Source of the DNA: Deltaproteobacteria bacterium
GTDB taxonomy: Bacteria > Myxococcota > Kuafuiibacteriia > Kuafuiibacteriales > Kuafuiibacteriaceae
DNA: 64,000 bases
Direction: 5' to 3'
Assembly (NCBI GenBank): GCA_040218735.1
Contig: JAVJQW010000047.1
Location: 79,934 to 143,933 of the forward strand
Position numbers and translations under genes: made by a program. How positions within the stretch are numbered: position 1 is the stretch's first letter; each line of letters begins with the position of its first letter. Below are positions 2,862-64,000 of this stretch, piece after piece. The notes under the pieces are model-generated. The model was not told the origin of the DNA. It made no database searches and saw nothing but the letters and a program-made list of their open reading frames with translations.

Positions 2862-3403
2862 GCGCCCGACTCCAGCTCCGCGATCCCGTTCGTGGGCCGA
2901 TACGCCGCGCGGAACGCTTCACGCGCGCGGCGCAGCCTGCTCGCGACGGCGGGCTCGGCGAGGCCGAGGATCTGTGCGGCTTCGCGACGCGTGAACCCTT
3001 CGATGTCCATGAGCACGAGCACCTCGACGTGCCGTATCGGCAGGCGCTCCAAGACCGCGCGGACCTCGAGATCGTCGTCGATGTTCTGTCCGGCGAGCGA
3101 CGGGACGGTGCTCTCGTCCTCCAGGAAGAAGACACGTTTGCACCACGCGAGCCGACGACGGTTCGCCGCGTGCCTTCGGGCGATCTGGTACAGCCAGGAC
3201 CCGAGCACTTCGTCGCAGCTGCAGGTGTGGATTCGCGCGGCGGCGGTGGCCAGAACATCCTGCACGGCGTCCTCCGCGTCTCGCGAGGAGAGGCCCAGCA
3301 GGACGCACCACCGGTACACGGCGCTCGCCCACGCATCGACCAATCGTCGCCAAGCCCACGCTTCGTCGGCCTGGCAGCCCTCCACCAAAGACATCGGTTT
3401 CAC
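2858..3403 (-). CDS. ECF RNA polymerase sigma factor
   Basis: DAEDAVQDV, WLYQIAR, EG..REAA.ILG....V.SRL.RAR; GTG start overlaps the upstream stop. Confidence 0.88.
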   Translation of the reverse strand: MKPMSLVEGCQADEAWAWRRLVDAWASAVYRWCVLLGLSSRDAEDAVQDVLATAAARIHTCSCDEVLGSWLYQIARRHAANRRRLAWCKRVFFLEDESTVPSLAGQNIDDDLEVRAVLERLPIRHVEVLVLMDIEGFTRREAAQILGLAEPAVASRLRRAREAFRAAYRPTNGIAELESGA

Positions 3404-4467
3404 GGTGCTGATGTCTCCGTGCGGCGGTTCTGATCCTCGCCCCGCTCGATTTTCGTCGCCGAACCGAAGAACGACCACGCGACCTGCAGGCCGACGCGCG
3501 CGCCCCAGCGGTTCACCCGCGCCGAGGGGCCATCCGGGATGACGATGTCCCGTGCGGTGGGGAAGACGAGCCCTTCGGCGAAGAGCGCGATCGCGAGCGC
3601 GTCGGCCCGGACCGTCGCCCCGACGCCCGCGACGCCTCCGATATCCACCGACGTGTGGTCGGCGGCGTCCGCGATGTCGTCCCGCGTGACGCGCAGCGTC
3701 TCGGCGCTGAGGCCGGCGCTCCAGGCGAGCTCGACGTAGCGACCCAGCTCGACCCCTCCGCGATACCCACCGGTCGCGCCGAACGCCGCGAGCCGGATCG
3801 GTCGGCCGTCGAGCGCCCACGTCGCCGTCGGCGCCCCGCTCGCCCGAACGAACCAGCCGTCGCGGGAGAGCTCGGCGGCGAGCTCCCACGTCGCGACGCC
3901 GGGCGTGCGGTAACGCAGCCAGGACTGCACGCCGACCGCGTAGCGCGACTGCGCCCACTGCGGCGCACGAACGGCGCTGGCGACCGCGCGGGTCTGCGGA
4001 TGGATCGGCGGCCACGGAGGCGTCGGCGCCGGCTCGGACTCGGGCGCGACCTCGACGACGGGCGCGGGTCGACGACGACGACGTTTCGCGGGGCGCGGCG
4101 CGACGGGCATCGACGCGACGGAGGGAGGCGGGAGGAGACCGGCGACCGGCTCGAGCGCGAGCGCTTCGATCATCACGGACAGCTCCGACAGCCGCCCCTG
4201 CCCCGCCGCCGAGCGCAGCGGTCCTTCGGGATCCAGGCGCCACGGGAGCTTCCGCCGGCGCGCTGTGCCGTCGGGTCGTTCGAAGGTCAGCGTCGTCGCG
4301 GTGATTCGAATCCGCGCGACCCCCTCGCCGCACCGCGGGTCGATCCGAAGCGTTCGAAGATAGCGCCCGAGCCGCTCCAAGACGGGAGCGGGGGCCCGCT
4401 CCTCGACACACACGCGCGTGTCGAGCGCGGCGCCGAGGAGCAGAGGAACGAGGAGCAGCGGGCCCAC
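3400..4467 (-). CDS. exported protein, Pro-rich linker and possible C-terminal beta-barrel
   Basis: Signal-like N-terminus; alternating amphipathic beta strands in C-terminal half; coupled to the ECF gene. Confidence 0.55.
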   Translation of the reverse strand: MGPLLLVPLLLGAALDTRVCVEERAPAPVLERLGRYLRTLRIDPRCGEGVARIRITATTLTFERPDGTARRRKLPWRLDPEGPLRSAAGQGRLSELSVMIEALALEPVAGLLPPPSVASMPVAPRPAKRRRRRPAPVVEVAPESEPAPTPPWPPIHPQTRAVASAVRAPQWAQSRYAVGVQSWLRYRTPGVATWELAAELSRDGWFVRASGAPTATWALDGRPIRLAAFGATGGYRGGVELGRYVELAWSAGLSAETLRVTRDDIADAADHTSVDIGGVAGVGATVRADALAIALFAEGLVFPTARDIVIPDGPSARVNRWGARVGLQVAWSFFGSATKIERGEDQNRRTETSAP

Positions 4468-54250: not shown

Positions 54251-55295
54251 GATGCCTCCCCTGGCCCGCGGCAAGCGCGAGAGCGCCCCCACCGCGGCTC
54301 CGCTCCCGGACGACTCGGATCGCCCGCTCATGAAACAAGTGCGCGGAGCGATCCGCGTACGTCACTTCAGTCGACGAACAGAGGACGCGTACACCCGGTG
54401 GATTCGACGTTTCATTCGCTTCTCGGGCATGCGCCACCCCCGAGAGCTCGGGGCGGAGGACGTCGAGAGGTTCCTCACGTCGTTGGCGGAGGACCGTGGC
54501 GTCGCGGCGTCGACGCAGAACCAGGCGCTGTCGGCGCTCCTGTTCCTCTACGGCGAAGTGCTTCGGGTCGACCTGCCGTGGATGCACGAGATCGTCCGCG
54601 CCAAGCGGCCGCTCCGTTTGCCTGTGGTGCTGACGCGTTCGGAGGTGGAGCGAGTCCTGAAGGAGCTCCCGGATCCGGCGCGTCTGGCGTCGCACCTGAT
54701 GTATGGCGCGGGGCTCCGCTTGCTCGAGTGTCTGCGTTTGCGTGTGAAGGACCTCGACTTCGAGCGAAGCACGTTGGTGATTCGAGAGGGCAAGGGCGCG
54801 CGCGATCGGCGCACGGTCTTGCCGATGTCCTTGGCTGCGCCCCTTCGAAACCACCTGGTCACGGTGCAGGCGCAGCATGACGTCGACCTGGAGCGAGGTG
54901 CGGGTCATGTGGAGCTCCCAACGGCGCTCGCGAAGAAGTTCCCGAATGCCTCGCGCGACTGGAAGTGGCAGTGGGTCTTCCCGGCCACGCGAACTTACCG
55001 CCACCGAGAGTCCGGCGAGCACCGTCGCCACCACCTCCACGAGACGGTCGTCCAGCGCGCAGTCACCGCCGCCGGCCGAGCGGCCCACCTGGAAAAGCGC
55101 GTCACCTGCCACACCTTCCGCCACAGCTTCGCCACCCACCTCCTCGAGGACGGCTACGACATCCGCACCGTCCAGGAGCTCCTCGGCCACCGAGACGTCC
55201 GCACCACGATGATCTACACCCACGTCCTCAACCGAGGCCCCGGCGCCGTCAAGAGCCCCGCCGACCGCCTCGCCCCCTTCGAAAGCAAGGAGTAG
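54243..55295 (+). CDS. intI: integron integrase (tyrosine recombinase)
   Basis: S.STQNQAL.AL.FLY, YGAGLR..E, GKG..DR, IntI-specific patch (L.KK.P.A...W.WQWVFP...RRHH), [14 protein letters not shown]....TT.IY; start could be 54252 or 54330. Confidence 0.96.
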
Positions 55296-55395
55296 CCGAA
55301 CCCAAGACCAAGCCAGCGCGAGGGTGCGCACAGGCCCGGGATATCCCAGACCGCAAGAACACAGTACGCTAGACTCGCAGACACCCGCCCCCGGC

Positions 55396-55438
55396 CTTGG
55401 ATCCCGCGATCTCCAAGACCGCCGACTTGGTGTTGGAC
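55396..55438 (+). other. putative attI site (core GTTGGAC 55432-55438)
   Basis: Core is the exact complement of R'' in the first attC; no attC hairpin upstream; short CCAAG/CTTGG inverted repeats; left boundary uncertain. Confidence 0.65.
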
Positions 55439-55452
55439 GGACGAGTCGACGA

Positions 55453-55869
55453 ATGTGGAATCCGACGCCATACCTGCTTGCCGTTGTCGTCCGGCTCAGG
55501 CAGTCCGCGCGGCTCCTTCTGCGATTCATCGTCGCCGCGACAGGCGTCACGGCTCTGGCCCTTTCGTGCATTCTCCTGCTGCGCGTCATCGTGTTCGATG
55601 CGGCTCTGGATGAGCCCCGCGCGTGCGCGCTCGCGAAGGAGCACGTCTCTGCCAGAGGTTTGCTTCCGGCGCGCTGCGGTCGCTTTGGTACAACGGATTC
55701 GGTCGGGAGCATCTGCGTCTACGATTCGCGTGGCAAACCCATCTTCCACGCGATGCTGTTCGGAGGGGCGCTACCATTTGAGGAGTGGCACGTCGACAAG
55801 TCGTGGGGCACTGGCGACTCGACAGTCACGAGCCACGAGTTTGCTCGTGGGATGTGCTCACCGGAGTAG
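55453..55869 (+). CDS. cassette 1: hypothetical membrane-anchored protein
   Basis: ATG 21 nt after the core; one TM; fills the cassette. Confidence 0.5.
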   Translation: MWNPTPYLLAVVVRLRQSARLLLRFIVAATGVTALALSCILLLRVIVFDAALDEPRACALAKEHVSARGLLPARCGRFGTTDSVGSICVYDSRGKPIFHAMLFGGALPFEEWHVDKSWGTGDSTVTSHEFARGMCSPE

Positions 55870-55963
55870 CTCTTGCGTTGGCGACGAACCGAGGTCGCGA
55901 TGGCTGCGCGTGCTTCGGTGCTTCGACCGGGCGTTCTAGCCAACCCAGTTGCCAAAGCGCGCC

Positions 55964-56027
55964 GTCCAACATGATGATGAAGACGGACAGGGGCTTCGCC
56001 CCTGCCGCTTATCATCGGGTGTTGGAC
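55964..56027 (+). repeat. attC 1
   Basis: GTCCAAC...hairpin with TTC loop...GTTGGAC. Confidence 0.92.
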
Positions 56028-56112
56028 GGACCAGAGGACGGATGTTGACAGCCCGACCTCGCTGCGCCGATCCTGTCCTGTCGCTCCGATTGGGCGACGA
56101 AAGGCAGGCCCA

Positions 56113-56688
56113 GTGTTCGTCTCAGATTCCAACGGAGCAATCTTGCACACCGGCGGCGGACTCTTCGATCTCCACCGTGTCTATCGAGACGCAGGCGTGG
56201 CGCTTCTATCGGATCTCCAAGTCCGAGTGCGAAACTCTGCTCCCGGAGTGCCGCGCCAGATCGTGACCGCGTTTAGCGGCCAGCAGTGCATTCCTATCCT
56301 CTTCCTCATGAGGCATTCGCTCGAACTGCAGCTCAAGATGATTCTCGCGCTCCTCGACGAACTCGATGGGGTCTCTCCGAAGAAGCGCGGCGAGCATCTC
56401 CTCAGCCTATACTGGGGCGAGGTGCAGCGACGCGCCGCCAGACACTTTCGAGACGACGAGCTCAAGAAGTACCTTTCACCCGAGTTCGAGTACATTACTG
56501 AGCAGTTGCGACCGCTCACGGACATCGACGACCGCGGCACCACCTTCCGGTACGAGGACCACGACCAGGCTATGCCATCCCTTGATATCGATGTGTTTGC
56601 AGACAGTTCAGCGGAGGTCTTCCAGACCCTCGACTACCTTGTCGATGCACTAGGGACATTTTGTGACCACAAGGCCGGACGCATATAG
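56113..56688 (+). CDS. cassette 2: HEPN-like domain protein
   Basis: P..F..RH.LEL.LK...H.L...W...D....FRY pattern. Confidence 0.6.
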   Translation: MFVSDSNGAILHTGGGLFDLHRVYRDAGVALLSDLQVRVRNSAPGVPRQIVTAFSGQQCIPILFLMRHSLELQLKMILALLDELDGVSPKKRGEHLLSLYWGEVQRRAARHFRDDELKKYLSPEFEYITEQLRPLTDIDDRGTTFRYEDHDQAMPSLDIDVFADSSAEVFQTLDYLVDALGTFCDHKAGRI

Positions 56689-56699
56689 TGACGCGGGCC

Positions 56700-56761
56700 G
56701 TCCAACAGGATGATGAAGACGGACGGGGCTTCGCCCCGCCGCTTATCATCGGGTGTTGGAT
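56700..56761 (+). repeat. attC 2
   Basis: GTCCAAC...GTTGGAT. Confidence 0.92.
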
Positions 56762-56862
56762 GGACCTGGCTATGGAGGGGATCGTGCCCCGACCTGCGTC
56801 AAGGTACAGGTGGGGCTGTTCCGAGTCTTCGCTTCGAGACGCTTCCGCGGTAACCAGGCACA

Positions 56863-57303
56863 GTGCGCCCGCTACTGCTCCTCGTGCTTCCCACGTTCCT
56901 CCTATGCTGCCAGATACCAACGAAGACTCAAGCCGTCGTTCTTAAGTTCGACCCTCCCGCAAGCGACCCGGTGTTTCGCGACTGTACGATCACGCTCAAC
57001 TGGACGGCGGTGGAACTCCTAAACCAATGCGGACCGCCAATCGACTCCTATCGCAGCGCGAAGGGAAGCGACGTCGTTTGTGTAGCCTACAAGAGCTACG
57101 CGCACTCGATCGCAGCGTCATCGGCGGTGGCTCCCTACTACGTCGTCTGCCTACGGCCCTGGTCGTACCCACGGAAATCCACGGAGACCACTCCGTTCTT
57201 GATACCTCTGATTCCGCCCGAGCAACTCCGCAACTACGTCGTCGAGTCGGTCTACGGGCTGCAGTCGATCCCGGGTACATTGACCTCCTCGACCCCGCGC
57301 TGA
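56863..57303 (+). CDS. cassette 3: putative lipoprotein
   Basis: Hydrophobic signal ending LLCC; stop just before attC. Confidence 0.55.
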   Translation: MRPLLLLVLPTFLLCCQIPTKTQAVVLKFDPPASDPVFRDCTITLNWTAVELLNQCGPPIDSYRSAKGSDVVCVAYKSYAHSIAASSAVAPYYVVCLRPWSYPRKSTETTPFLIPLIPPEQLRNYVVESVYGLQSIPGTLTSSTPR

Positions 57304-57317
57304 GATGATGCGCGGCC

Positions 57318-57381
57318 ATCCAACATGATGATGAAGACGGACGGGGGCTTCGCCCCCGCCGCTTATCATCGGGTGTTGGAT
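57318..57381 (+). repeat. attC 3
   Basis: ATCCAAC...GTTGGAT. Confidence 0.92.
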
Positions 57382-57733
57382 GGACGCGCCGCAGGGTGCG
57401 TACCCTCGAACCACCCCATCAACTTTGCGCAGAAGGGCTGCCGCTTGGGCCGTGCTGATGCGAACTCATCGTCTCGATCGACTCGCCGAGGACGCGCGAG
57501 CGCCCGGGAGGGCAGCGAACGCTGCTCGAGCCCGGAGCGCCGGCACAGCCAGCGCGCGCGGCGGCCGGACACTTCGTGCCTAATGGCGATAACTTGTGCC
57601 CGGCCTACGCGGGCAGGAACTCGGCGTCGCCTGGCGCCTTGCCCCGACCGCTCACGCTTGCGACTATGCGTGCGCCATCCAACAGGATGATGAAGACGGA
57701 CGGGGCTACGCCCCGCCGCTTATCATCATAGTG
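57376..57733 (+). other. cassette 4: apparently ORF-less, family A (near-duplicate of cassette 15)
   Basis: 358 bp; no convincing ORF; TTGCCC-N17-GACTAT at the 3' end. Confidence 0.65.
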
Positions 57734-57739
57734 TTGGGC
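57677..57739 (+). repeat. attC 4
   Basis: ATCCAAC...TAC loop...GTTGGGC. Confidence 0.9.
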
Positions 57740-57765
57740 GGACGAAGCGCGTGAGGAGTCGATCG

Positions 57766-58176
57766 ATGCACGCCGAGGTTGAGTATCTATTCCAACTGGT
57801 CAACGCGGGACTCCTGACCCACGCCGAACTACCCTCGAAGTTGCTCCACCTCGCCGCGACCAAGGAGCCTGAGGACGTCCTCCGAGGCGTTCCCGTGTGG
57901 GTCGCCGAACGTCTCCGCGACATCTGCTCGCGAGGGAGCGGGGACTCTCTTCGGTTCTATCCGACATGGGGGTGCGGAGTTGATCCCGACGAAGCCATGG
58001 ACCGCTACGACGCGGAAGCCGAGGCAGGCCTTCAAAGGCTGCGGGGCTACTTCGCGATTCGTGCAGTTGATGAGACGATGGACGAATCCGCTTCCGCGCG
58101 ACAGCCCGCCACGAACGAGGGACCATTCCGCAATCCCGAGCTTATGCGCGCCGCCCAACAGGATGATGAAGACTGA
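57766..58176 (+). CDS. cassette 5: hypothetical protein
   Basis: GAGGAG RBS; ORF ends inside attC 5. Confidence 0.5.
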   Translation: MHAEVEYLFQLVNAGLLTHAELPSKLLHLAATKEPEDVLRGVPVWVAERLRDICSRGSGDSLRFYPTWGCGVDPDEAMDRYDAEAEAGLQRLRGYFAIRAVDETMDESASARQPATNEGPFRNPELMRAAQQDDED

Positions 58177-58214
58177 CGGGGCTTCGCCCCGCAGCTTATC
58201 ATCGGGTGTTGGGT
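58153..58214 (+). repeat. attC 5
   Basis: GCCCAAC...GTTGGGT; compensatory CTG/CAG pair. Confidence 0.92.
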
Positions 58215-58228
58215 GGACGAGGACGAGG

Positions 58229-58705
58229 ATGACTGCCAGGAGACAAGCTCGGAAACGTTTCCACGACTTCTTTGCCAACTCCTCTATCGTTCAACGCGCG
58301 GGATTTGTCAGGGTCGCCACACCGCGCGGACTCGGCGGTTCCCGCTTCTTCACGCGGAGCTTGGGCACCGGATTCCTTCACCTCGAGATCCAGATCGACG
58401 ATCTTGTCGTCATCGCGCGTGCTGCTATCTCCGAGAAACAAGTACGCGACATCGATCCAATTGCTGCAGGGATCCCTGAGCCCTGGCCGCCGAAGCAGCC
58501 ATGCGACTACTTCTTCCATTTCCATGCCCTCACGTCGAACACCACCAGCCCCTGGAGGATCGGCCTCGCCTTGCTCGACGACCGATCGTTACAGCGGCTC
58601 TCCTCGCGGATTATCGAGGCCGTGAACAACATCGTTCTCCCCGAAGCAAAGCGTCTGCTTGAGCCATCTATCGATGCTCCCTCCGTAGCCCCCGAGGAGC
58701 CATAG
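58229..58705 (+). CDS. cassette 6: hypothetical protein
   Basis: GAGG RBS; ORF fills the cassette. Confidence 0.5.
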   Translation: MTARRQARKRFHDFFANSSIVQRAGFVRVATPRGLGGSRFFTRSLGTGFLHLEIQIDDLVVIARAAISEKQVRDIDPIAAGIPEPWPPKQPCDYFFHFHALTSNTTSPWRIGLALLDDRSLQRLSSRIIEAVNNIVLPEAKRLLEPSIDAPSVAPEEP

Positions 58706-58790
58706 GCTGTCCGAGAGACCTCCGAGCACGATGCCTTCAAGGACCTGGGAGTGAGGCAACCAAACCCCAACGCTTGCGCTCGTGCGCGCC

Positions 58791-58854
58791 ACCCAACATG
58801 ATGATGAAGACGGACAGGGGCTTCGCCCCTGCCGCTTATCATCGGGTGTTGGGC
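58791..58854 (+). repeat. attC 6
   Basis: ACCCAAC...GTTGGGC. Confidence 0.92.
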
Positions 58855-58929
58855 AGACGGACCGAGACCTCTAGCCCATTCCAATTCCAATGGTTGACGT
58901 GAGCGATCTCTCGGGAAGGAACGCGATGT

Positions 58930-59337
58930 ATGGGAGATACGATTTGGGTCCAGACCAACGACAACGGACTCGCCGACGGCGACGACTACGATCACAGCTT
59001 CATGGTTCGCCTCGAGAAACCCCTTGAGCGCATCGCGAAGGACGCGGGACTCGATCCTCTTTCGGTGTTCTACGATGGCACAGCCATGGAGGAAGCCTAC
59101 GCGGACGAGTTCGGAGACGATCTGCCGCGTTCCGAACCCAATTGGTCTGATGCGAAGGTCGGCCTTGCGGTGATTACTAAGCTGTCAAAGGTGATCTCCG
59201 ACGACCCGGCGAAGCTGGGCGCATCCGTCGACCAGCCGTCGGTTTCGCGACTGGTCGAAGAACTTGAGCACGCGAAGAAGGTATTGAGGAGCGCAGTAAG
59301 GAAGAAGCGACAGTTCCGACTCCTGCTTGTCCCGTGA
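58930..59337 (+). CDS. cassette 7: acidic hypothetical protein
   Basis: AAGGA RBS; globular composition. Confidence 0.65.
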   Translation: MGDTIWVQTNDNGLADGDDYDHSFMVRLEKPLERIAKDAGLDPLSVFYDGTAMEEAYADEFGDDLPRSEPNWSDAKVGLAVITKLSKVISDDPAKLGASVDQPSVSRLVEELEHAKKVLRSAVRKKRQFRLLLVP

Positions 59338-59391
59338 CGACCTCAAGGCCTCCAAGTGTACTCCGCTCCGAGGTGGTTGCCGATGCGCGCT

Positions 59392-59453
59392 GCCCAACAG
59401 GATGATGAAGACGGACGGGGCTTCGCCCCGCCGCTTATCATCGGGTGTTGGGT
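59392..59453 (+). repeat. attC 7
   Basis: GCCCAAC...GTTGGGT. Confidence 0.92.
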
Positions 59454-59936
59454 GGACAACCTCGAGCCGCCGGAAGGAATGGCCCCGCTTTTTCATCTTG
59501 CGCGAGGTCGAGTTTGCTTGCTGCTCGACCTATCCCAGAGTGCAGCTCCCATTCTGACGGCGGACCTCGTCGAGCGAATGTCTCGGGCCCGCTCACCGAA
59601 CGCCGAGAAGAAGCCGCACGGCCCGACCTCGCCGTTGAGCCATCCTCGGCGAGCACAGTGCACCACCACGGCCCATCTCCCATGATGGTCCAAACCGCCG
59701 AGGCGCGCGCGCGGAGCACAGCGCCAACTGCCACCGCGAAGCCACGAGCGAACGCCGACAGCGCGCATTCCCCACGAGGATGAGGCCCAAGTACCTGAGC
59801 TCGAAGACGGCGAGCTCCAGGGAGGAGCTTTTCGTAGCGGACCTCGACCGACCCGAGCTGCTATCATCCACCGCCGAGCCACCCAACAGAATGATGAAGA
59901 CGGACGGGGCTTCGCCCCGCCGCTTATCATCTGGTG
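59448..59936 (+). other. cassette 8: apparently ORF-less, family B
   Basis: Ends homologous to cassettes 10 and 12; TGcTATCAT at 59859-59867. Confidence 0.55.
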
Positions 59937-59942
59937 TTCGGC
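59881..59942 (+). repeat. attC 8
   Basis: ACCCAAC...GTTCGGC. Confidence 0.9.
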
Positions 59943-60003
59943 GGACGAACCGGGGCCCCTCGCCCATTCCATCTCGGCTCACGGCGCGAGCCGCAGTATA
60001 GTA

Positions 60004-60360
60004 ATGACCATGCGAGGCGACCTGAACTACTACCTCATCATCAGGAACCTGGTTCTCGGCCTCGCTCTCTTCCTCGGCGTGCCGCTGATCCTCAATCTCG
60101 GCGGACTCTTTGTCTGGACGGTCTTCTTCGGCAATCCGCCCTCGTTCTTCTCCGGGCTGACCTTTGCCGTTGCCGGACTGTCATACATCGTAGCTTTCGG
60201 GGGATTCTCGTTCGCCTGGGTCCTCAACGAAGACCAGCAGCGTAGAGACTTCCGTATCAACGAACTCGAATCGAAGATCGTACTGCTCGAGTCTGCGCTT
60301 GAGAAGATAGAACGGGCGTCGGAGGCTAGCTCGAGCGGAAGCCGCATCGTTCCCCTGTAG
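60004..60360 (+). CDS. cassette 9: two-TM membrane protein with coiled-coil tail
   Basis: Two hydrophobic helices; INELESKI..LE heptads. Confidence 0.65.
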   Translation: MTMRGDLNYYLIIRNLVLGLALFLGVPLILNLGGLFVWTVFFGNPPSFFSGLTFAVAGLSYIVAFGGFSFAWVLNEDQQRRDFRINELESKIVLLESALEKIERASEASSSGSRIVPL

Positions 60361-60422
60361 AGACCCGTCGAGGACCGGGAAACGTGATAGGAGACATGTC
60401 GAATGCGGTGCCAATGCGCGCC

Positions 60423-60485
60423 GCCGAACAAGATGCTCAAGGCTGACGGGGGCTTCGCCCCGCAGCTTAGCATCGCGTGTTGGGT
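60423..60485 (+). repeat. attC 9 (divergent, compensatory L-box changes)
   Basis: GCCGAAC...GCTCAAG/CTTAGC...GTTGGGT. Confidence 0.9.
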
Positions 60486-61001
60486 AGACAACCTCCAACG
60501 GCCCGTGAAGATGTCATGGTTTTCGGGAACACGAGTGTCCGAGCTTCCTGGCCAGAACGTGGCCCGACAGGGCAGTGCGAACACTGGTGAGCGAGGTGCC
60601 GACCAGTCCCGCGCGAGACGCCCCGTGCAGCCCGAACGCCGCACCCCGAAGGACGGACATCCCCGGCGAACGTCCATCCAGCGCGCGACCGAATCTCGGA
60701 TCCAACTTCGCCCCGCCGCATCTCCCGCGCGCGACAACCAGCCCACTCCAACCCACAAGCCACGCGCAACCGCCGCAGCGCACGCGGCCTCGCAGAGCAC
60801 CAACTCGCATAGGGCCTCAAAGAATCGCGCTGCAGACCCACTCGACGCCGCGGACCACGAATCAATCCTAAAGTGGAACGACGTGAAGAGCTCATCGGTG
60901 CAGACCTCGAGCCACCGCACCTGCTATCATCCACCGCAGAGCTACCCAACAGGATGATGAAGACGGACAGGGGCTTCGCCCCTGCCGCTTATCATCGGGT
61001 G
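60480..61001 (+). other. cassette 10: family B (only a low-complexity ORF, 60511-60957)
   Basis: Ends homologous to cassettes 8 and 12; TGcTATCAT at 60922-60930. Confidence 0.5.
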
Positions 61002-61007
61002 TTGGGT
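60944..61007 (+). repeat. attC 10
   Basis: ACCCAAC...GTTGGGT. Confidence 0.92.
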
Positions 61008-61080
61008 GGACCTACCGCCGTAGAACCGCATCTTTCAACGATGTCGTTGACATCTGGTCGTCAAAGAACAGAATAGAAGC

Positions 61081-61617
61081 ATGAATGCAAGCGGATATTT
61101 CAAGACATGGGCTGTAACGCTCCTAATTGCAGTCGTGTATGCTGTCTTTCTGATCCCGGTCGCGCTCCTTCCCCTGGATTCGGCATTTGCTAGCCAGAGC
61201 GAAATCTCAAAGGACCAAGTCATTGCGATCGCCCGCATCATAGTATTTGTCTCCGTCTTGCCAATCGTTCCACTGATTGCTGTCCTCTTTGGCGGCGCAG
61301 GCGGTGTCATCGCCGGTACCGCTGCCGAAGGCATCGGGGCGAAAGCAGAGCGCCGGGCGAGGCTTTGGTCTGGCAGATATGGCATCGTTCGGTCGCTCGC
61401 TCTGAGCCTATTCTTCTTCGTCTTCACTCCTCTCAAGTCCGAAAGTCTCTCACATGACTGGGGAACGATGACGGCCCCGCACATCTTGGGGTACCTGGTC
61501 CTCTTGACGTCCGTTATCCCCTTCGCTGCCTGGTACTTCGCAAGACCCGAAGGCTCGACCGGCTTCTGGTATAGTTCTGTGCGAAATGGAGTAGATTCAT
61601 CCGGCCACCCAACATGA
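61081..61617 (+). CDS. cassette 11: four-TM membrane protein
   Basis: Lower GC; four hydrophobic segments; stop inside attC 11. Confidence 0.6.
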   Translation: MNASGYFKTWAVTLLIAVVYAVFLIPVALLPLDSAFASQSEISKDQVIAIARIIVFVSVLPIVPLIAVLFGGAGGVIAGTAAEGIGAKAERRARLWSGRYGIVRSLALSLFFFVFTPLKSESLSHDWGTMTAPHILGYLVLLTSVIPFAAWYFARPEGSTGFWYSSVRNGVDSSGHPT

Positions 61618-61668
61618 TGATGAAGACTGACGGGGCTTCGCCCCGCAGCTTATCATCGGGTGTTGGGC
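61607..61668 (+). repeat. attC 11
   Basis: ACCCAAC...GTTGGGC. Confidence 0.92.
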
Positions 61669-62117
61669 CGACTGCCTCGAACCTCCGATATTGATGGACC
61701 TTCTTGGAGAATGCGCGACGCGTCGTCGTCGGGAGATCATTCCGGGACTGAAATTGCCGTTCAGCTACTGCCGTTGGGAGCCCCGTCGTGGGGCCATGCC
61801 GCCGTGCCGCGGTCTCAGCGAGCTGCCCACTCGAGCGAACCCCGAGGCGAGCAAGGTCCACGCCGCCGTTGCGTGCCCTCATGCGAGCGCACAGACCCTC
61901 CTCTCTCGAACGCCCCCAGCAGCCTCTCCCAACGCATCGCCACGGCACGACCGCCACCCTGAGCCAAAGACACCGCCGTGCGGGGCCGCGCAGCGTCCCA
62001 AAGGACCAACTTGCGGAAGACCTCGACCAACCGAATCCGCGATCATCCAACGCAGAGCGGCCCAACATGATGATGAAGACGGACAGGGGCTTCGCCCCTG
62101 CCGCTTATCATCGGGTG
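61663..62117 (+). other. cassette 12: apparently ORF-less, family B
   Basis: Ends homologous to cassettes 8 and 10; the only long ORF runs through the attC. Confidence 0.5.
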
Positions 62118-62123
62118 TTGGGC
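62060..62123 (+). repeat. attC 12
   Basis: GCCCAAC...GTTGGGC. Confidence 0.92.
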
Positions 62124-62173
62124 AGACCAATGCGGAGAGCGTGTTCTCCACCTCGAAGCGCGGTAGGTAGGGC

Positions 62174-62644
62174 ATGGGCCTTCGCGAAGGGAGTTTCGGT
62201 CGGATGAGGGCAAAATATGTCGAGTTACAAATCGTCTCGCGCTCCGACGAACAACGCATCGGATCGGACTTCCGCGTCGGCCGCATCCTGCTCGCCAAGC
62301 ATTTTCGCGCCTCCCAAATTGCATCGATCGACGTGGATCCTAGATTCGCACGCCAGCTCTTGCTTCGGGAGGAATCCGACTTCGCCTCGGGGAGAGTGCC
62401 CCTGTTCGTATGCGAGTGTTGTGCGGATCTCGAATGCGGTGCGCTCACCGTCGCGGTTGAGCGGAGAGACCAAGCGATCCTCTGGAGGGACTTTGGCTAT
62501 GAAGGTCACGACGGACGGACGCCCACCGCGAGCGATGAGATAACGCGAACCGGCCCGTTCGTGTTCGACCGCGTACAGTACGACTCCGTCCTCACTACGT
62601 ATGCGAAAACGAGAAAGAGTTGCTCAGGGACTGGCCAACGATGA
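62174..62644 (+). CDS. cassette 13: Cys-cluster hypothetical protein
   Basis: R.PLFVC.CC.D..CG...V.......W.DF...GPF.FD..QY pattern; start uncertain. Confidence 0.6.
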   Translation: MGLREGSFGRMRAKYVELQIVSRSDEQRIGSDFRVGRILLAKHFRASQIASIDVDPRFARQLLLREESDFASGRVPLFVCECCADLECGALTVAVERRDQAILWRDFGYEGHDGRTPTASDEITRTGPFVFDRVQYDSVLTTYAKTRKSCSGTGQR

Positions 62645-62657
62645 GATGATGCGGGCT

Positions 62658-62719
62658 GCCCAACATGATGATGAAGACGGACGGGGCTTCGCCCCGCCGC
62701 TTATCATCGGGTGTTCGGC
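62658..62719 (+). repeat. attC 13
   Basis: GCCCAAC...GTTCGGC. Confidence 0.92.
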
Positions 62720-62771
62720 GGGCCAGAGTCACAGCCAAAGAGCTTTGAAGTTCCGGGTCCTCGGCGTGCCT

Positions 62772-63353
62772 CTATGGGTTTACGACCACGAGATCGGCTC
62801 CAGGAGTGCCCGGGCACTGCCGAACCTTGATAATCCACGTGACGTAGTACGTTGCTGGTCGCGATCTGTGGTTGTGGCTTCCGGACCACTTAACAGGATG
62901 GCTGTGGTAATCGCCTTGCGATCCGAACTGGGCGCGCTCCCGTCCATTGCTCTCCTTCCCGACGTCGGAGGTGGCTCGAACATCAATGTTCACCTTGGTA
63001 TCTTCGGTGCGCGGCTGGCCTTCGAATCGCCCAGTCAGCGGAATGGGAGGACTACTCTGCAATCTTCTCCATCCAGCGAGGTATCGCGCATTCTGCTTTC
63101 CTCGGTTGAGATTAGGGACGATTACATTGTAGGCAGGCGTAGCACCTTGCGCGGGGATTCTAACTGTCTGACCATTCGCTCGTACCCAGCAATCACCACG
63201 AAATCTCGAGGCGGCGTTAAGGGTTCCCCGATGACCGCTGTAGATCGCCTCATCCCAGGCCATAATGGAACCCACAGGCGGAGCTTCGGCAAGCACCGGA
63301 GAGGAATGAGCGAGGACGCCAAACAGGATGATGTAAGCGAAGGATCGATTCAT
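62772..63353 (-). CDS. cassette 14 (antisense): secreted protein with phage tail-collar-like domain
   Basis: Signal ..SPVLA; PVGSIMAW...W..ANGQ...PNL...RP....V.WIIK. Confidence 0.6.
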   Translation of the reverse strand: MNRSFAYIILFGVLAHSSPVLAEAPPVGSIMAWDEAIYSGHRGTLNAASRFRGDCWVRANGQTVRIPAQGATPAYNVIVPNLNRGKQNARYLAGWRRLQSSPPIPLTGRFEGQPRTEDTKVNIDVRATSDVGKESNGRERAQFGSQGDYHSHPVKWSGSHNHRSRPATYYVTWIIKVRQCPGTPGADLVVVNP

Positions 63354-63483
63354 AGTGGAGTTACTACCCGCGGACCAACATATCTGCAAGGGATGGGCAC
63401 GATCGCGCGATGAGCAGTGGTATGTGTCAACAATCCTTAGACCTCAGGAGACCCGATCTGGGGCATTTGCGAGAGCGACGGCC

Positions 63484-63544
63484 GCCGAACATGATGATGA
63501 AGACGGACGGGCTTCGCCCTGCCGCTTATCATCGGGTGTTGGAT
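63484..63544 (+). repeat. attC 14
   Basis: GCCGAAC...GTTGGAT. Confidence 0.9.
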
Positions 63545-63896
63545 GGACGCGCCGCAGGGTGCGTACCCTCGAACAACCCCATTAACTTTGCGCAGAAGGG
63601 CTGCTGGTTTGGCCGTGCTGGTGCGAACTCATCGTCTCGATCGACTCGCCGAGGACGCGCGGGCGCCCGGGGGGGCAGCGAACGCTGCTCGAGCCCGGAG
63701 CGCCGGCACAGCCAGCGCGCGCGGCGGCCGGACACTTCGTGCCTAATGGCGATAACTTGTGCCCGGCCTACGCGGGCAGGAGCTCGGCGTCGCCTGGCGC
63801 CTTGCCCCGCCCGCTCACGCTTGCGATTATGCGTGCGCCATCCAACAGGATGATGAAGCCGGACGGGGCTACGCCCCGCCGCTTATCATCATAGTG
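63539..63896 (+). other. cassette 15: apparently ORF-less, family A (near-duplicate of cassette 4)
   Basis: 358 bp; about a dozen substitutions versus cassette 4; TTGCCC-N17-GATTAT. Confidence 0.65.
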
Positions 63897-63902
63897 TTGG
63901 AT
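63840..63902 (+). repeat. attC 15
   Basis: ATCCAAC...TAC loop...GTTGGAT. Confidence 0.9.
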
Positions 63903-64000
63903 GGACAGGGGCCCGAGTCGATCTTCGATTCCGAAACTGAGATAGCGTGAGCGTCGATGTGTGTACTGCGTGTTGCCGGAGACGACCTCCGTCCTGACGA

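Follow-up and report, generated by a model that had tools for sequence, protein, structure and literature searches.

In large chromosomal integrons, it is still debated how cassettes at a distance from the platform promoter come to be expressed. The DNA examined here, the final 64 kb (64,000 nucleotides (nt); hereafter, the window) of contig C28 in the 11.6-Mb, 70-contig genome of a deltaproteobacterium (G000; GenBank assembly GCA_040218735.1), contains a chromosomal integron, and its cassettes 8, 10 and 12 bear on this question. An original prediction, made from the sequence, described the three as cassettes poor in open reading frames (ORFs), with dissimilar interiors and homologous ends, each followed by a gene cassette, and proposed that they are promoter modules that can be shuffled and that take the place of the platform promoter Pc. 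We were interested in which of these observations hold, and in whether the conserved ends of these cassettes, denoted family A below, carry an outward-facing promoter.

The first observation proves to be largely right, and the promoter interpretation appears plausible and has precedents. The idea of promoter cassettes is already known (PMC11014356, PMC6557892), and we regard the finding as a plausible annotation rather than a discovery. What appears to be particular to family A is the combination of a conserved module at a fixed position beside attC, a GC-rich host (68.5% G+C, measured over the first 12 contigs) and an array that is co-oriented with its integrase.

The cassettes and their boundaries

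The cassette array follows a full-length integrase gene in the same orientation and continues past the end of the contig, that is, it belongs to a reverse integron. A search with an attC profile located 15 attC sites on the forward strand of the window, in which R'' (RYYYAAC), R' (GTTRRRY) and the L''/L' arms are discernible together with an imperfect inverted repeat. The features around family A are the following, with coding signatures given as G+C fractions at codon positions 1, 2 and 3 (GC1/2/3) and protein lengths in amino acids (aa).

54330 to 55295, forward strand: integron integrase gene intI (NCBIfam TIGR02249, 454.9 bits against a cut-off of 265, full length; Pfam Phage_integrase and Phage_int_SAM_4)
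59448 to 59936, forward strand: cassette 8, family A type c8, 489 bp, judged non-coding
59881 to 59942, forward strand: attC of cassette 8, from R'' ACCCAAC to R' GTTCGGC (attC profile)
60004 to 60360, forward strand: ORF of cassette 9, downstream of c8, 118 aa, GC1/2/3 0.58/0.39/0.76, no match in Pfam
60480 to 61001, forward strand: cassette 10, family A type c10, 522 bp, with an ORF from the ATG at 60511 to the TGA in attC that lacks a coding signature
60944 to 61007, forward strand: attC of cassette 10 (attC profile)
61081 to 61617, forward strand: ORF of cassette 11, 178 aa, its stop being the TGA within attC
61663 to 62117, forward strand: cassette 12, family A type c12, 455 bp, judged non-coding
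62060 to 62123, forward strand: attC of cassette 12 (attC profile)
62174 to 62644, forward strand: ORF of cassette 13, downstream of c12, 156 aa, with the dip in GC2 typical of coding DNA

The sizes and places that had been given for the three cassettes match exactly those obtained from the attC profile and the G|TT cut points (489, 522 and 455 bp at 59448-59936, 60480-61001 and 61663-62117). Each cassette opens with 9-10 nt that form the reverse complement of the R'' region in its own attC, which validates the boundaries; the 5' end of cassette 1 is likewise complementary to its own R''. Cassettes 8, 10 and 12 are thus seen, at the level of their sequence, to be ordinary attC-bounded cassettes that the integrase can move. 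As stated in the original prediction, each is followed by a coding cassette: the ORFs of cassettes 9, 11 and 13 all show the coding-type dip in GC2.

Further pieces of the array lie on contigs C15 (2.3 kb) and C39 of the same genome, and a second assembly, G001, holds 67 attC sites of the same array type on 11 short contigs (C1, C22, C31, C37, C50, C62, C69, C72, C75, C91 and C101). Contig C15 of G000 is part of contig C50 of G001, identical across 2320 bases; G001 therefore represents the same or a very near lineage, and what it contributes is extra copies, not independent evidence. The G001 assembly comprises 4.9 Mb, and its array contigs may be mis-binned pieces of the array of that lineage; if they do belong to the same lineage, the whole array may exceed 80 cassettes. 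The attC type of the array was not found in any of the 40 related genomes searched. Pattern scans for relatives returned 19 loci in genome contigs, five of them true and all in one assembly, G001, and three loci in metagenome contigs, all attributable to chance.

Conserved ends and drifting interiors

Family A comprises six sequence types in G000 and G001 taken together: c8, c10 and c12, which are in the window, one on contig C15 of G000 (type C15), and two confined to G001, on its contigs C22 and C101 and named after them. G001 also contains close homologues of c8 and c12. Among the 15 pairs of types, identity in the 45 nt before R'' is 0.74, against 0.57 for shuffled sequences, and at the 5' end (positions 7-31) 0.61 against 0.50, so that the likeness of the cassette ends exceeds chance; global identity of the interiors is 0.56, against 0.55 for shuffled sequences, and the 3' block is more conserved than the interior in all 15 pairs. 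These comparisons show interiors that drift freely between about 25 nt of conserved sequence at the 5' end and the 45 conserved nt before attC.

The proposed dissimilarity of the interiors holds in part. Although global identity is at shuffle level, BLAST finds weak but significant interior homology among c8, c10, c12 and C101 (60-65% over 140-240 nt, E 1e-4 to 6e-12), for instance between c8 and c10 (63%, 155 nt, E 6e-6) and between c10 and c12 (60%, 244 nt, E 1e-4). These four types are therefore diverged homologues rather than carriers of unrelated inserts. Types C15 and C22 have only the ends in common with the rest of the family. A suggested check for captured foreign DNA was negative, with no match in a blastn search of 59448-62713 against phages and plasmids. 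Direct repeats of the form GAC(NNN)CTCGA at both ends were considered as a possible target duplication and rejected, the copies within a type being no more alike than copies from different types.

The conserved 5' end had also been said to place an ATG exactly 32 nt from the core G. This is the case for c8, c10 and c12, but the G001 homologue of c8 has GTG at this place and C15, in which the first in-frame ATG is at +49, has no ATG there (C22 did not enter this comparison).

Coding potential

Family A is not literally ORF-poor, as it had been described. Its DNA has little T and few stop codons, and ORFs of 99-150 aa are present, though these lack coding signatures; 14 of 54 frames on both strands are free of stops because the DNA is T-poor. 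Type c8 and its G001 homologue, which are 86% identical, differ by 66 substitutions and seven gap columns, six of the latter in the body, and the peptides read from the start at +32 are unrelated beyond three residues. Substitutions among the three full copies of c12 are spread over the codon positions (10/10/10, 7/3/5 and 8/7/8), and metagenome variants of c8 and c12 carry additional one-base indels. A codon-usage score trained on the genome is a weak discriminator for cassettes, and GC1/2/3 was used instead: the longest family-A ORFs are flat (0.67/0.63/0.68), whereas the other, coding cassettes dip at position 2 (0.65/0.50/0.68). Six family-A ORFs have no match in Pfam, the c10 ORF (148 aa) has no homologue among proteins of 81-259 residues, and the C15 ORF (135 aa) has none among 1.84 billion representatives.

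In short, the frame is not kept between relatives and there is no synonymous excess. From the frameshifting indels, the even distribution of substitutions over codon positions, the flat G+C profile and the absent homologues, we judge that family A does not look protein-coding. A conserved translated protein inside these cassettes had been named beforehand as evidence that would speak against promoter modules; Pfam, the homologue searches and the substitution pattern reveal none. The conserved 3' block shows no coding pattern either. By eye, c8 and c10 showed an excess of third-position differences in one frame of the block (9 of 14), which vanished over all types (8/15/14 by codon position, without a periodicity of three bases).

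A case for translation lies in the open frame that spans the whole cassette in c10, C15, C101 (133 aa) and one copy of c12 (125 aa). It could belong to a fast-evolving small protein, or to an ORF for which the act of translation matters and the sequence does not, reaching from a start near +32 to the TGA of attC, where the ORFs of coding cassettes such as cassette 11 likewise end. Shuffled sequences have zero stops in a given frame with a probability of 0.04-0.215, and the chance that at least three of the six types are open is, by a rough estimate from these figures, about 0.03. The frame is nevertheless broken in c8, its homologue and C22, and the single base that keeps it open in the one c12 copy is missing from the four other copies that cover the site. 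Third positions show no excess of substitutions, and where C101 and c12 share a C-terminal stretch, each of the seven base differences alters the residue. The G+C profile by codon position is flat, R, P, S, C, W and H together make up 0.42 of the residues, open frames abound in this T-poor DNA in any case, and homologues are absent from Pfam and from both protein searches. A small protein or translated ORF of this kind in family A strikes us as highly improbable. The mild excess of open frames ending at the attC TGA fits the descent of family A from a coding cassette, and the family probably did originate from a cassette that was once coding.

The 3' block as a candidate promoter

In the three window cassettes, the conserved block before attC comprises the following segments, as delimited by the alignment of types.

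59839 to 59880, forward strand: 3' block of c8, with GGACCT, 17 nt, then TGn and TATCAT (59862-59867); CCACCGCCGAGCC
60902 to 60943, forward strand: 3' block of c10, with AGACCT, 17 nt, then TGn and TATCAT (60925-60930); CCACCGCAGAGCT
62018 to 62059, forward strand: 3' block of c12, with AGACCT, 17 nt, then GATCAT (62041-62046); CCAACGCAGAGCG

The motif that had been described, RGACCT-N17-(T/G)ATCAT-CCA.CGC.GAGC, is indeed present at 59839-59879, 60902-60942 and 62018-62058. In an ungapped alignment of eight sequences, A2, A5 and T6 of the -10-like hexamer (TATCAT/TACAAT) are invariant, whereas positions 3 and 4 swap; also invariant are the G of the TGn position and most of the C.A.CGC.GAGC that follows the hexamer. 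The hexamer is TATCAT, TACAAT or GATCAT, with A2 and T6 in every case, and four of the six types (c8, c10, C15 and C22) have TGn in front of it, an extension that can make up for a weak -35 element. This pattern supports the view that the hexamer shows the hierarchy of conservation expected of a -10 element. The G with which the hexamer of the window copy of c12 begins (62041) is replaced by T in all four G001 copies that cover the site and in four of four metagenome runs, so the window variant would amount to a natural -10 mutant.

The block is confined to the integron. Searched against the 11.6-Mb genome, a profile of the block matched only there (three matches at E<=2e-9, C15 at E 0.13 and two at E>1), and we reject the notion that it is a general regulatory motif of this genome. 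The string TGNTANNAT occurs seven times on both strands of 42,566 nt representing 70 distinct cassettes, and five of the seven occurrences represent the block, lying at a constant distance from R''; being homologous to one another, the five do not count as independent cases. Several simpler explanations of the block were also rejected. It is not a degenerate copy of attC, local alignments giving z between -1.5 and +1.5 for the six types; nor does it reflect a -10-like motif that precedes all attCs, since no hexamer is common to the 77 distinct 3' ends, though many cassettes end in ATGCGCGCC; and an extension of the attC stem, pairing the 3' block with the 5' motif of the same cassette, consists of just GAG/CTC across a 5-nt bulge and is not convincing.

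If the block is what it resembles, it would be an outward-facing promoter of the sigma-70 type, with a -10 element TAYMAT, mostly extended by TGn, and a weak -35 element. The transcript would begin some 6-8 nt past the hexamer, or roughly 12-14 nt short of the end of R'', and would cross attC into the next cassette; cassettes remote from the platform promoter would thereby gain expression. That the block functions as such a promoter is, on the evidence of its conservation pattern, a real possibility, to which we assign a chance somewhat short of even; of the readings weighed here, it is the one that we favour.

Several observations weigh against it. No -35 element close to TTGACA is found 16-18 nt upstream: GAC alone matches, within nnGACC at 18 nt, and C15 and C22 lack even this GAC. 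The clearest promoters of host tRNA genes, in a comparison of 62 upstream regions of which five scored 8/12 or better, have strong -35 boxes (TTGACA/TTGACG/TTGACT-16-TAGACT/TAGGCT). A consensus promoter scan of 55200-64000 gave seven sites, none of them in a family-A block. In nearly every attC of the array, the hairpin arms include C(G/T)GACG-18-TATCAT (e.g. 58173-58202 and 61627-61656), so that this degree of promoter match comes cheaply here. The spacer between the hexamers and the 13 nt after the -10-like hexamer (C.A.CGC.GAGC) are conserved as strongly as the hexamers themselves, which a promoter alone does not explain. In addition, c12 and C101 have no TGn, the window copy of c12 departs from the consensus at position 1 of the hexamer, and in c10, C101, C15 and one c12 copy the frame to the attC TGA stays open from a start between +31 and +49, which gives a hint of translation or of a coding past. 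In-silico prediction, moreover, failed to pick the real promoters of gene-less cassettes in Vibrio (PMC11014356).

The consensus scan also scored the sense strand of the attC hairpin as promoter-like, at 9/12; a start there would fall on the first bases of the next cassette.

The chief competitor of an active promoter is decay. Family A could be an old coding family that lost its gene and now drifts without present function, its ends remaining alike through attC function, gene conversion or recent common descent. Interior identity at shuffle level with remnants of homology is what such a history would leave, and the layout of a true cassette, in which the frame starts at +31/32 and stops inside attC, persists in some types. 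Conservation of the block is also less impressive among close relatives: c8 and its homologue differ at two sites in positions 401-440 and at 2-12 per 40 nt elsewhere, and among close copies generally the block is just modestly less variable than the interior. Degenerated genes have been reported among the gene-less cassettes of Vibrio (PMC11014356). On the other side, the block is absent from the other cassettes of the array and therefore is not a general requirement of attC; it is not attC-derived, as the alignment scores above indicate; between types its identity of 0.74 exceeds the 0.56 of the interior in every pair; and one array retains at least four copies, in different contexts, even though excision readily removes useless cassettes. 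We accordingly regard decay without function as unlikely, though as a better candidate than any of the other competitors considered here.

RNA folding and base composition

A family of non-coding RNAs had been offered as an alternative to promoters, and conserved ends around a variable middle could indeed suit an RNA with conserved terminal helices. The evidence speaks against it. Compared with dinucleotide shuffles, c8, c10 and c12 fold with z of -0.96, +1.19 and +2.26 on the forward strand, and c10 and c12 with +0.33 and +1.34 on the reverse strand, that is, no better than shuffles on either strand. Rfam yields no match at the gathering score; at E<=1, the region 55296-64000 contains a single match, at chance level and in a different cassette family (family B, described below). 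In a candidate hairpin across the spacer of the block, the two variable positions occur in all four combinations, including one that does not pair; hence, there is no covariation, and a conserved hairpin at this place was rejected. Indels occur throughout the cassettes. A trans-acting or structured RNA gene is thus the least credible of the explanations that we considered.

Poor folding takes on a different meaning alongside the base composition. In all six family-A types, the T fraction is below the lowest value among 57 other cassettes (U=0, p=3e-5), and the excess of C over G is higher in family A than in the other cassettes (p=0.005). Types c10 and c12 include 80-nt windows with 41-42 C against 13-14 G, and a C-rich, G-poor stretch of about 80 nt is present in five of the six types. 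This skewed composition, together with RNA that in c10 and c12 is less folded than its shuffles, resembles a loading site for the termination factor Rho. Family-A cassettes could then be insulators or polarity elements, in which an untranslated, C-rich, G-poor and weakly folded body loads Rho and halts transcripts that come in from upstream, whether or not transcription restarts at the 3' block. The stretch is absent in C22, however, where the skew is opposite (-0.12), and some coding cassettes come close, with 80-nt windows of +0.31 to +0.34. In Vibrio, inhibition of Rho left the reporter output of gene-less cassettes unchanged (PMC11014356). Taken together, these points make a Rho-loading insulator an improbable role for family A, though less so than a small protein.

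Family B and other gene-less cassettes

Family A is not the only gene-less cassette group that the array contains. The copies of family B in G000 include the following.

57376 to 57733, forward strand: family B cassette, 358 bp, gene-less, G+C 0.69, with TTGCCC (57639-57644), 17 nt and GACTAT (57662-57667)
63539 to 63896, forward strand: second copy of the family B cassette, with TTGCCC (63802-63807), 17 nt and GATTAT (63825-63830)
1859 to 2216 of contig C15 of G000, reverse strand: family B copy in an array fragment

At least three copies are present in G000 and several in G001, with variants down to 71% identity. In the place where family A has its block, family B has a 3' module, TTGCCN-17-GAYYAT, of which the hexamers and the 17-nt spacing are kept in variants that are 71-74% identical. 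The two families share CCTCGAAC near the 5' end and CGACCG...TGC.AT.AT near the 3' end. The 63539-63896 copy folds with z of -1.76 on the forward strand and -2.64 on the reverse strand. A partial cassette in G001 (contig C101, reverse strand, 1-277) has an unrelated body, but its last ~105 nt, from TTGCCC through attC, match the family-B alignment, and the similarity breaks at the 5' edge of the -35-like hexamer. Both the layout of family B and this break fit a promoter module.

A broader scheme would treat families A and B alike as "expression plugs" of the reverse integron, in which a promoter of ~40 nt, adapted to the host, is coupled to attC and joined to a Rho-loading body that is C-rich, T-poor, unfolded and untranslated. 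The promoter-attC unit could, in this scheme, land on unrelated bodies, as in the partial cassette just described. We think the scheme as a whole improbable. If it were true, the array would be cut into independently transcribed units, and shuffling would rewire which genes are active.

The cassette that directly follows one c12-type copy in G001 (contig C37, reverse strand, 3105-3639; 535 bp, G+C 0.68, GC1/2/3 0.73/0.71/0.65) has no coding-type dip in GC2 and may be a third kind of gene-less cassette.

Mobility and cassette order

The description of family A as shuffle-able modules is well borne out. The c12 type is found upstream of five different cassettes and downstream of four, and in contigs of four metagenome runs the cassettes are joined in other orders; independent shuffling is therefore real. 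The strict alternation with gene cassettes that had been reported is confined to positions 8-13 of the window, where it would arise by chance in 12 of 560 placements (0.021, a post hoc figure), and is not general in the G001 fragments. In those, family-A cassettes are five to six cassettes apart, one directly follows a family-B cassette, and one cassette that follows a family-A cassette also lacks a coding signature. Families A and B together account for five of 16 cassettes in the window, none of them adjacent, an arrangement with a chance probability of 0.18.

Other features of the integron

Between the integrase gene and the first cassette, a further promoter-like site was noted.

55296 to 55432, forward strand: spacer from intI to attI, up to the first G|TT junction (G at 55432), containing CAGACC-17-TAGACT at 55346-55374

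The latter may be the promoter of the cassette platform in this reverse integron, a candidacy that stems from the identity of TAGACT with the -10 element of the two best tRNA promoters.

The sequence (GATG)ATGCGCGCC is found at the end of many coding cassettes, 9-16 nt before R'' (e.g. 58143-58151 and 59382-59390). The ATG within this sequence opens a frame that passes through attC (MRAAQQDDEDG...) into the next cassette; in c8 and c10, the ATG at +32 shares its frame.

The attC of the c8 homologue (contig C62 of G001, 639-699) differs from that of c8 (59875-59936 in the window) compensatorily on both sides of the inner arms, with the loop and the R boxes kept; the difference reflects either covariation within attC or an exchange of attC.

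Cassette 14 (62714-63538) contains long ORFs on the sense strand that show no clear coding signature. An ORF of 205 aa on its reverse strand (62772-63389), with a start resembling a signal peptide, may be a cassette gene in reverse orientation.

Comparison with known promoter cassettes

Internal promoters are not foreign to cassette arrays. Toxin-antitoxin cassettes come with promoters of their own, which thus act as internal promoters of the array. The candidate promoter of family A would resemble these in breaking, from within the array, the operon-like gradient of expression that starts at Pc; the difference is that promoters of toxin-antitoxin cassettes serve the gene of their own cassette, whereas that of family A faces out of a cassette without a gene.

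Closer parallels come from ORF-less cassettes, and the statement in the original prediction that promoter-bearing cassettes of this kind are known in Treponema and Vibrio agrees with the literature (PMC6557892, PMC11014356). In the reverse integrons of Treponema, ORF-less cassettes show promoter activity, and a "genetic clutch" has been proposed (Tansirichaiya et al., Sci Rep 2019, PMC6557892), whereby such cassettes take over the expression of downstream cassettes that have been pushed away from Pc, much as would be envisaged for family A. The Treponema arrays belong to another phylum and have another type of attC, and three cassettes were tested, in Escherichia coli; a conserved cassette family with a common 3' module is not described in the abstract and the first half of the Discussion of that report (PMC6557892).

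The gene-less cassettes of Vibrio, from which the category name "promoter cassettes" derives (Blanco et al., Nucleic Acids Res 2024, PMC11014356), offer the nearest comparison. Most of the 30 studied have promoter activity in the sense orientation. Like family A, they are of ~450-650 bp and scattered along a chromosomal array, and some originate from degenerated genes; their sense promoter drives the downstream cassette, with start sites that can fall near or within attC, as would those of the family-A block. By the definition used for Vibrio (no annotated gene and no ORF >210 bp; PMC11014356), family A falls outside the category, because its DNA is poor in stop codons, but it shows no coding constraint, as expected of a gene-less promoter cassette. 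Promoter activity was measured in Vibrio and is predicted from sequence in family A. The Vibrio cassettes are AT-rich, and spurious transcription is among the possibilities that their authors discuss, whereas the host of family A is GC-rich and its cassettes have a short, AT-richer hexamer at a fixed distance from attC, within a conserved block shared by the family. By analogy, family A could well comprise promoter cassettes of the kind described in Vibrio and Treponema, a proposition that we hold, like that of an active block, to be slightly less probable than its contrary. To date, the demonstrated promoter cassettes all come from the AT-rich arrays of these two genera, with promoters in varying places and perhaps in part spurious. 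If the block of family A is active, it would constitute a conserved promoter module at a fixed position by attC in a GC-rich host, and a cleaner natural case in which to ask whether such cassettes are under selection for a promoter role.

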